From the UHGV virus genome UHGV-0299458: DNA of 29,348 nt. The stretch is one strand, 5' to 3'. Of the stretch, positions 12,808 to 13,134 are shown piece by piece. Under the pieces are notes generated by a model. It was given only the letters and a program-made list of their open reading frames with translations, did no database searches and was not told the DNA's origin. Every line of letters begins with the position of its first letter. The first letter of the stretch is position 1. Both the position numbers and the translations under genes were made by a program. The stretch is from a virus.

Positions 12808-13134
12808 TCAAGGACGTGACGGCGTAAAGATAAATTGTCTCTTCACTCCCTGACAGGGGCGATTCTTTTCAAATCGCCATTTCGCCATGGCCTTCACCAC
12901 TTCATCACGAAACAAATTATGAGGCTCTGAGCGGAGAAAAACGATCCGTGTCACAGTCCCATCAGCACCAATATCGAACTTAACCTCAACCAGCCCCTTG
13001 ATATAATTTGCTGCAGCATATTCCGGATATCGTGGATACACCGTCACTAATTGCCGGGGCTCATCAGCTTTTTGCTGCGAGCATCCCACTGCCAGGACAG
13101 ATAACAGAAAAAGTAGTAAAAGGCGTCTTTTCAT
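12808..13134 (-). CDS. Lipoprotein with TonB C-terminal-like domain (cargo gene)
   Basis: Start at ATG 13132-13134 (RBS AGGAA); lipoprotein signal MKRRLLLLFLLSVLAVGC-S; remainder YPEYAAANYIKGLVEVKFDIGADGTVTRIVFLRSEPHNLFRDEVVKAMAKWRF fits the TonB C-terminal domain pattern (YP...EG.V.V.F.V..DG.V...I..S.P...F...V..A...WRF). Confidence 0.7.
   Translation of the reverse strand: MKRRLLLLFLLSVLAVGCSQQKADEPRQLVTVYPRYPEYAAANYIKGLVEVKFDIGADGTVTRIVFLRSEPHNLFRDEVVKAMAKWRFEKNRPCQGVKRQFIFTPSRP

Follow-up and report, generated by a model that had tools for sequence, protein, structure and literature searches.

A prophage-encoded lipoprotein with a TonB C-terminal domain as a candidate decoy for TonB boxes

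What might a prophage gain from a small lipoprotein that resembles the C-terminal domain of TonB, the energy transducer of its host? This question is raised by a gene in the virus genome UHGV-0299458, a stretch of 29,348 nucleotides that was analysed as a whole and is called the window below. The window is a lambdoid prophage, of which a 2.2-kb test stretch is 100% identical to many Escherichia coli chromosomes. Directly after its lysis genes it encodes a protein of 108 residues, here called the TonB_C lipoprotein. Potentially, this protein acts as a decoy for TonB boxes and damps the TonB-dependent entry of phages, group B colicins and microcins, a reading to which we give a probability of about 0.45. 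It would then be a phage outer-membrane lipoprotein aimed at TonB-dependent gates by mimicry of TonB, through a mechanism that is unproven.

The domain and its predicted lipid anchor

The preliminary description of this locus, which was made from the sequence alone, had proposed a TonB C-terminal fold and had named a Pfam search and structure prediction as checks. Both were carried out, and profile, PDB alignment and predicted fold bear the proposal out. The protein matches Pfam PF03544 (TonB_C) with an E-value of 7e-13 and 49.2 bits (gathering score 24.6) and TIGR01352 with 47.4 bits (cut-off 27.1). Its best sequence matches in the PDB (E about 1e-14) are the E. coli TonB C-terminal domain structures 1u07, 2gsk and 2grx; the alignment is gapless and pairs residues 24-103 with residues 151-230 of E. 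coli TonB, in the TonB numbering used here and below. An AlphaFold2 model, built on an alignment of 27 sequences, has a mean predicted local distance difference test score (pLDDT) of 87.4 and values of at least 97 for residues 30-100, with the secondary-structure elements in the same order as in TonB. As expected, the signal peptide region scores low, and blocks of 52, 55 and 84 were obtained across residues 1-30. In Foldseek, the model superposes on TonB C-terminal domain structures with template modelling (TM) scores of 0.89-0.93 (normalised to target length), a root-mean-square deviation (rmsd) of 0.7-1.2 A and 38-41% identity. All top matches are TonB C-terminal domains, with TolA domain III far behind, and the three-stranded-sheet alpha/beta fold is recovered against 1u07, 2gsk and 2grx.

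The aromatic core of TonB is recognisable in the alignment: the YP motif (Y36 P37), F53, F75, W86, F88 and F103 are retained. Among the 27 sequences Y36, P37, F75 and W86, which align to Y163, P164, F202 and W213 of TonB, are invariant or nearly so. Compared with the known structures of the E. coli domain (1u07 and 1xx3 alone, 2gsk with BtuB, 2grx with FhuA), the fold is the same, at an rmsd of about 1 A and a TM score of 0.9, except that the phage protein has no counterpart of the short strand that ends TonB (after residue 233). Unlike E. coli TonB, the phage protein has neither the N-terminal transmembrane helix for coupling to ExbB and ExbD nor the proline-rich rod, and it is predicted to be lipid-anchored at the opposite, outer membrane. 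A role as an energy-transducing TonB was considered and rejected: the NCBIfam equivalogs (PRK10819) reach no more than 69 bits where the cut-offs are 265-448 and match with the C-terminal part of the profile only, and the architecture, 108 residues with a cleavable signal peptide (1-18) and nine residues between Cys18 and the domain, is not that of a transducer.

That the protein is a lipoprotein, as had also been proposed, is well supported by its N-terminus. The sequence MKRRLLLLFLLSVLAVGC, followed by SQQ, fits a PROSITE-type lipobox (LAVGC) with Cys18 and a serine at position +2, and MKRR-LLLLFLLSVLAVGC fits the pattern [LVI][ASTVI][GAS]C after a basic and then hydrophobic stretch. Cys18 is predicted to be acylated and to become residue 1 after processing. 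In E. coli, an aspartate at +2 is the Lol avoidance signal, and lipoproteins are otherwise sorted to the outer membrane. Since the +2 residue is Ser and not Asp, the predicted location is the outer membrane. The predicted mature protein of about 91 residues therefore consists of an N-terminal lipid anchor, a tether of about nine residues and a complete TonB C-terminal domain. The open reading frame (ORF), with an ATG start and 108 codons, is a real gene under purifying selection: compared with the 72%-identical allele of Shiga toxin (Stx) phages, the ratio of non-synonymous to synonymous substitution rates (dN/dS) is 0.12, at a dS of about 1.5, which is saturated.

The protein is not new to public annotation. 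It is 100% identical to the product of gene 73 of phage 21 (CPT_21_73, UMO75484.1, 'TonB C-terminal domain protein'), and between cosN and a point about 310 bp upstream of the gene the two phages have nearly the same DNA. PGAP names the RefSeq entry WP_000830178.1 'TonB family protein', PHROG 1267 matches with an E-value of 5e-43, and the gene is also annotated in ev017, Perceval and Stx phages of the CP-933N type. None of the phage 21, RefSeq and PHROG records states a function. The preliminary description was thus right that no phage function had been described, as no functional study was found, but the gene itself was already on record. Gene, domain and position are already in public annotation, and the function is what remains undescribed. 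Four points appear to be new: the family defined below consists of lipoproteins throughout, phages of different types carry the gene in the same place behind the lysis genes, a Fur operator is predicted for most relatives, and the phage 21 allele has lost this operator.

By blastn, 1617 of 5426 complete E. coli genomes (~30%) carry the gene. In 1202 of the 1617 the identity is at least 99%, UTI89 and ATCC 25922 included, and another 392 E. coli genomes, O157:H7 among them, carry it at 60-80% identity.

A family of small lipoproteins and its Fur-like operators

Related loci were taken from viral and genome collections and yielded 47 distinct proteins. In an exhaustive HMMER search, the nearest relatives outside E. 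coli are proteins of ~105-135 residues that match from end to end, and not full-length TonB; family members are found with E-values of 1e-18 to 1e-23, against about 1e-10 for fragments of TonB. The hosts are Enterobacterales (Escherichia, Klebsiella, Raoultella, Serratia, Erwinia, Pantoea and Sodalis) and their phages. All 47 proteins have a lipobox, with the cysteine at positions 16-21; position +2 holds S, T, A or V and in no case Asp. The tether is of similar length throughout the alignment.

On phage records and contigs, the gene nearly always stands on the late strand between the lysis cassette upstream and the packaging genes downstream, and 46 of 48 viral loci have a lysis gene upstream on the same strand. 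This order holds across packaging modules of the lambda Nu1/A type, the HNH plus terminase type and the DUF1441/GpA type. Several members from Klebsiella, Raoultella, Serratia, Erwinia and Pantoea lie at loci without phage markers, and no iron-uptake operon was seen next to the gene at those of them that were inspected. As a separate observation, loci of Pantoea and Pseudescherichia have another gene for a small lipoprotein, at a distance of ~1-3 kb from that of the TonB_C lipoprotein (7961-8389, minus strand, of locus L029 and 6447-6860, plus strand, of locus L030). Judged from raw ORF lists, its product, e.g. MNMKIIYFATTAAVLFLTAC...PPKQIFD, may be a paralogue.

Upstream of the gene, 34 of the 47 distinct relatives match the Fur consensus (GATAATGATAATCATTATC-like) at 14 or more of its 19 positions within 150 nt of the start codon. 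In random windows from these loci, and in upstream regions shuffled with their composition preserved, 14/19 was reached in about 1% of cases. The placement of the sites is fixed (-25 to -37, or -65). At least nine lineages have different versions, such as GATAATGATTCTCATTAAC (a Sodalis prophage), GTTATTGAAAATCATTATC (Serratia phages), TATAATGATAATCTTTATC (Pantoea) and tGATAATtATTATCa (the P0037 type). Klebsiella phage ST13-OXA48phi12.4 is another carrier of a relative with a Fur-like box. In several relatives, the Fur-like box overlaps a good -10 hexamer that has a -35 element at 17 nt. These relatives, including those on prophages, thus look like autonomous genes that would be induced by iron starvation.

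The two E. coli alleles differ at this place. The Stx phage allele has TGTTAGAAT, a TGn-extended -10 element, followed by the perfect palindrome AGAATAAGaCTTATTCT; the allele matches the Fur consensus at 13 of 19 positions. The allele of the window and of phage 21 keeps the block ATTGTCAGAATAAGAC, and a 13-nt indel deletes the right half of the palindrome, so that a Fur-like site is lacking. A candidate -10 element, TGTCAGAAT, can be seen by eye in the window allele, and relatives have a -10 at the homologous position that is overlapped by the Fur-like box.

A possible TonB-box decoy and its rivals

How would such a protein act? Because the tether has nine residues, the domain would reach the periplasmic face of outer-membrane proteins and not ExbD at the inner membrane. 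There it may bind TonB boxes by addition of a beta-strand to its last strand, as TonB does with BtuB and FhuA (2gsk, 2grx), the boxes being those of TonB-dependent transporters or of incoming group B colicins. Alternatively, it might pair with the C-terminal domain of TonB itself. Any such binding would be non-productive, as there is no coupling to ExbB and ExbD. A competitive mimic of this kind would damp entry of phages of the T1 and phi80 types, of colicins and of microcins, at the cost of some siderophore and B12 uptake. Most relatives would be transcribed from their own promoter under the Fur-like operator and would be on in iron starvation, when the receptors are derepressed; the window allele has lost half of this operator.

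Competition for TonB boxes had already been suggested in the preliminary description, and we can now add precedents to it, although the mechanism itself stays conjectural. Passages of bioRxiv 10.1101/2020.01.05.895219 describe that the periplasmic TonB fragments 33-239, 103-239 and 122-239 inhibit the TonB system and that overexpression of TonB(33-239) abolishes ferrichrome transport. FhuA and FecA are bound in vitro by soluble TonB fragments. As periplasmic TonB fragments are dominant-negative, a decoy mechanism is plausible. These engineered fragments are the closest functional analogue, since they follow the same principle of a periplasmic TonB C-terminal domain without an energy-coupling anchor. 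However, they are laboratory constructs that are soluble, longer and overexpressed, whereas the phage protein is natural, consists of the domain only and has a predicted outer-membrane lipid anchor. The other precedent comes from phages. Llp of T5, a lipoprotein of the inner leaflet of the outer membrane, binds the periplasmic face of FhuA, and Llp and Cor (phi80, N15, HK022) are likewise small phage lipoproteins at this site that hit a TonB-dependent transporter from the periplasm. They are unrelated to the TonB_C lipoprotein in sequence and fold, and they are FhuA-specific and act allosterically on plug and loops, whereas a mimic of TonB would act on TonB boxes in general.

Several observations speak against a decoy. 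TonB Q160 is a suppressor site for TonB-box mutants, and the equivalent residue is a tyrosine in the window protein and variable across the family. The anchor lies in the membrane opposite to that of TonB, and a tether of nine residues may not allow the orientation that TonB takes under the barrel. UTI89 and ATCC 25922 are proficient in TonB-dependent uptake and rely on it or are tested for it (siderophores in urinary infection; cefiderocol quality control). Since both carry an identical copy, strong constitutive inhibition by it is unlikely. An inhibitor of TonB that is induced in iron starvation also looks costly and paradoxical, and would make sense only if protection at a time of derepressed receptors outweighs the cost or if binding is selective. 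Because some relatives lie at loci without phage markers, a housekeeping role, and not exclusion, is suggested. No functional study of a TonB-like lipoprotein of a phage or prophage was found in a full-text literature search, whose coverage leaves out most subscription journals. PADLOC gave no match for the TonB_C lipoprotein, which thus belongs neither to the anti-phage defence proteins known there nor to Llp and Cor; Pfam returns TonB_C only.

The window allele also falls short of the regulation predicted for its relatives. Its best upstream match to the Fur consensus is 10/19 (shuffle p = 0.93), no site within three mismatches was found in the whole window, which gives no sign of a place in a Fur regulon, and a sigma-70 scan reported no site on the minus strand of 13135-13445, the candidate TGTCAGAAT included. 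The earlier suggestion of an own promoter and of expression in the lysogen is therefore not supported for this allele. The gene is co-oriented with the late operon. Because a sigma-70 site is lacking and the scan predicted no terminator that would separate the gene from Rz, the only route of expression to be inferred directly from the window sequence is transcription that reads through from the Q-antiterminated late operon. In the lysogen, the allele may be weakly constitutive, late-only or silent.

Among the other explanations, a role in iron uptake deserves the most attention, although we regard it as unlikely. The protein would then be an outer-membrane paralogue of the TonB C-terminal domain, induced in iron starvation and carried by prophages as a fitness gene, that tunes uptake and does not block it, by holding or pre-organising TonB boxes, by binding periplasmic binding proteins or by ranking transporters for a limiting pool of TonB. 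The paradox of an inhibitor made in iron starvation and the members without phage markers keep this explanation alive. It would also fit the Fur-like boxes, which occur family-wide and extend to those very loci in Klebsiella, Raoultella, Serratia, Erwinia and Pantoea, and the retention of the gene in 30% of E. coli genomes, including siderophore-dependent pathogens. However, at no inspected locus is the gene part of an iron-uptake operon, there is no known way for a non-energised TonB C-terminal domain to aid transport, and all soluble TonB fragments tested in the passages cited above were inhibitory. Less probable still is an envelope tether or protective role like that of Bor, Lpp or Pal, in which the protein would bind peptidoglycan or abundant envelope proteins and stiffen the envelope of the lysogen against serum or stress. 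There are reports that the C-terminal domain of TonB binds peptidoglycan and forms cross-links with Lpp and OmpA, and the gene shares the cargo slot of bor, whose product is also an outer-membrane lipoprotein. Yet the protein has no similarity to Bor and only TonB_C as a Pfam match, phage 21 carries both genes, so that they are not alternatives, and the Fur-type control in relatives indicates iron rather than general envelope stress.

The PHROG 1267 label 'Rz-like spanin' would make the protein a late-operon product that acts at or after lysis. Such a role would be in line with the place of the gene, which is always directly behind the spanin genes and in late-strand orientation, without a predicted terminator to separate them, but we consider it improbable, because the window already has a complete Rz/Rz1 pair, the globular TonB fold is not a spanin architecture, and relatives have a Fur-type promoter region and in part lie away from phage markers. 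An identity as o-spanin was rejected, given that the true Rz1 (PF06085) is embedded in Rz and the protein studied here is globular and encoded 311 bp away. The label is probably wrong and most likely arose because the lipoprotein gene adjoins Rz. The least credible explanation is a dead remnant of a captured tonB gene. Records of ev017, Perceval and CP-933N-type phages use the wording 'partial' or 'truncated' tonB-like, and the best PDB match is E. coli TonB at about 40% identity. Against this stand a dN/dS of 0.12 at saturated dS, a lipobox that was acquired and kept in every relative, an intact domain with a high-confidence model, and the separation of the family from true TonB in the HMMER search; selection and family conservation essentially exclude a pseudogene.

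The TonB-box decoy remains the reading that we favour for the protein of the window. A wider claim would be that a widespread prophage family of mostly Fur-controlled outer-membrane TonB mimics, present in ~30% of E. coli genomes, confers a generic, receptor-independent immunity by 'TonB-box jamming' in iron starvation against phages, group B colicins and microcins, as a counterpart of Llp and Cor. We regard this extension as doubtful. If the mimicry were true, it would be a new generic route by which prophages shut TonB-dependent gates, by copying the energy transducer of the host instead of targeting one receptor. The gates concerned are those used by phages, colicins, microcins and possibly siderophore-antibiotic conjugates, and there would be a bearing on the choice of therapy phages, the ecology of gut bacteriocins and susceptibility to 'Trojan horse' antibiotics. 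If the tuning of iron uptake were true, the gene would be a prophage fitness factor linked to iron limitation. Under either reading, the predicted Fur control in relatives points to iron limitation as the condition in which a phenotype might be seen, for a gene carried by about a third of complete E. coli genomes, uropathogenic strains, Shiga toxin strains and widely used laboratory reference strains included, and by the classical phage 21.

Position between the lysis genes and cos

Along the late strand come holin, lysozyme, Rz/Rz1, a spacer of 311 bp, the TonB_C lipoprotein gene, about 760 bp of further DNA, cosN and the genes for the small and large terminase subunits (Table 1). The gene had been placed in a cargo slot between Rz and cos, and these features agree with that. 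It had also been placed where lambda carries bor; the slot is indeed the same, but the gene does not stand in for bor. In phage 21, bor is inserted on the opposite strand between Rz and the TonB_C module, just upstream of the spacer, and the prophage of the window lacks this segment. Since phage 21 carries both, bor and the TonB_C lipoprotein gene are separate cargo items in one slot and not alternatives. Bor (Iss) of lambda is likewise a small outer-membrane lipoprotein from this slot, but it is unrelated in sequence, is encoded on the opposite strand and is known to be expressed in the lysogen. The gap upstream of the gene has about the length first described (~300 bp), although 'non-coding' was too simple, as phage 21 annotators called an ORF of 45 residues there, for which no Pfam or PHROG match was found. 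Beyond the stop codon, a hairpin might serve as a two-way terminator that closes the cassette, as would be expected of a moron; the terminator scan did not call it.

Table 1. Features of the TonB_C lipoprotein gene and its surroundings (positions in the window).
Feature	Position	Strand	Remarks
CDS, 108-residue TonB_C lipoprotein	12808..13134	-	identical to phage 21 gp73 and RefSeq WP_000830178.1
Shine-Dalgarno AGGA	13141..13144	-	7-10 nt 5' of ATG; homologous place in phage 21 annotated as ribosome-binding site
Lipoprotein signal peptide, lipobox LAVGC	13081..13134	-	residues 1-18, read from sequence
Flexible tether SQQKADEPR	13054..13080	-	residues 19-27; joins lipid anchor to domain
TonB C-terminal domain	12826..13053	-	residues 28-103; strand, helix, two strands, helix, strand
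Candidate TGn-extended -10 TGTCAGAAT	13154..13162	-	by eye, 4/6 hexamer; within block ATTGTyAGAATAAGAC conserved with the Stx phage allele
Spacer from Rz stop to TonB_C lipoprotein gene, 311 bp	13135..13445	-	nearly identical to phage 21
45-residue ORF directly upstream	13152..13289	-	phage 21 CPT_21_72 (hypothetical); called by phage 21 annotators; putative
Rz i-spanin	13446..13919	-	PF03245, E 4.5e-47; last gene pair of lysis cassette, directly upstream
Rz1 o-spanin, embedded in Rz	13508-13693	-	PF06085, E 4.4e-20
9-bp G+C-rich hairpin	12692..12716	.	92 nt beyond stop, before convergent plus-strand ORF 12506-12685; fold prediction
cosN GGGCGGCGACCT	12033..12044	-	cohesive-end sequence; right end of phage 21 genome aligns to window 12045
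Terminase small subunit	11340-11849

Annotators disagree on the coding strand of the DNA between the gene and cos (12419-12685): RefSeq has a plus-strand ORF of 59 residues (12506-12685; phrog_4843, E 4e-47), and phage 21 has two late-strand ORFs, CPT_21_74 and CPT_21_75. Convergent to the TonB_C lipoprotein gene lies an ORF of 83 residues (12193-12444, plus strand) that is annotated neither in RefSeq nor in phage 21. Its product starts with MKIRNILAISLATSSFSC, followed by LAF...; the lipobox is of the PROSITE type, and both Cys18 and the motif GCxCPFC at the C-terminus are invariant. The ORF is probably a real gene, since E. coli, Citrobacter, Klebsiella and Salmonella have full-length homologues with 55-89% identity; it matched no family in Pfam or PHROG. 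The Salmonella homologue adjoins a Bor homologue, an omptin, a SPATE autotransporter and a NEL effector, and on Klebsiella plasmids the neighbours are a FUR-family regulator and CobW. The best Fur-like site of the whole window, cGAGAATaATTATCAc (12075-12099, 15/19), adjoins cosQ and lies ~100 nt upstream of this ORF. The site is weak and its meaning doubtful, since it is not conserved upstream of the homologues (Salmonella 11/19, Klebsiella 13/19).

Further features were noted elsewhere in the prophage. An ORF of 297 residues between holin and lysozyme (14971-15864, minus strand) has a DUF1327 N-terminus and matches phrog_1085 over its full length (E 2e-188). It appears intact in the window, and only a part of it is annotated in RefSeq, where it is a YdfR-family pseudogene. 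RefSeq annotation alone gives other cargo around the late promoter region, namely a homologue of the anti-adapter IraM (16837-17172, plus strand) and, downstream of the antiterminator gene, a cluster of tRNA-Arg, tRNA-Arg and tRNA-Ile (18084-18333, minus strand). In a matching genome (locus L216, NZ_AP022049.1 2958000-2976500), the annotation of the prophage beyond the window includes a Lom-family gene and no cor gene. The same prophage adjoins potB/pepT, and its side tail-fibre gene is broken by an IS3-family element.

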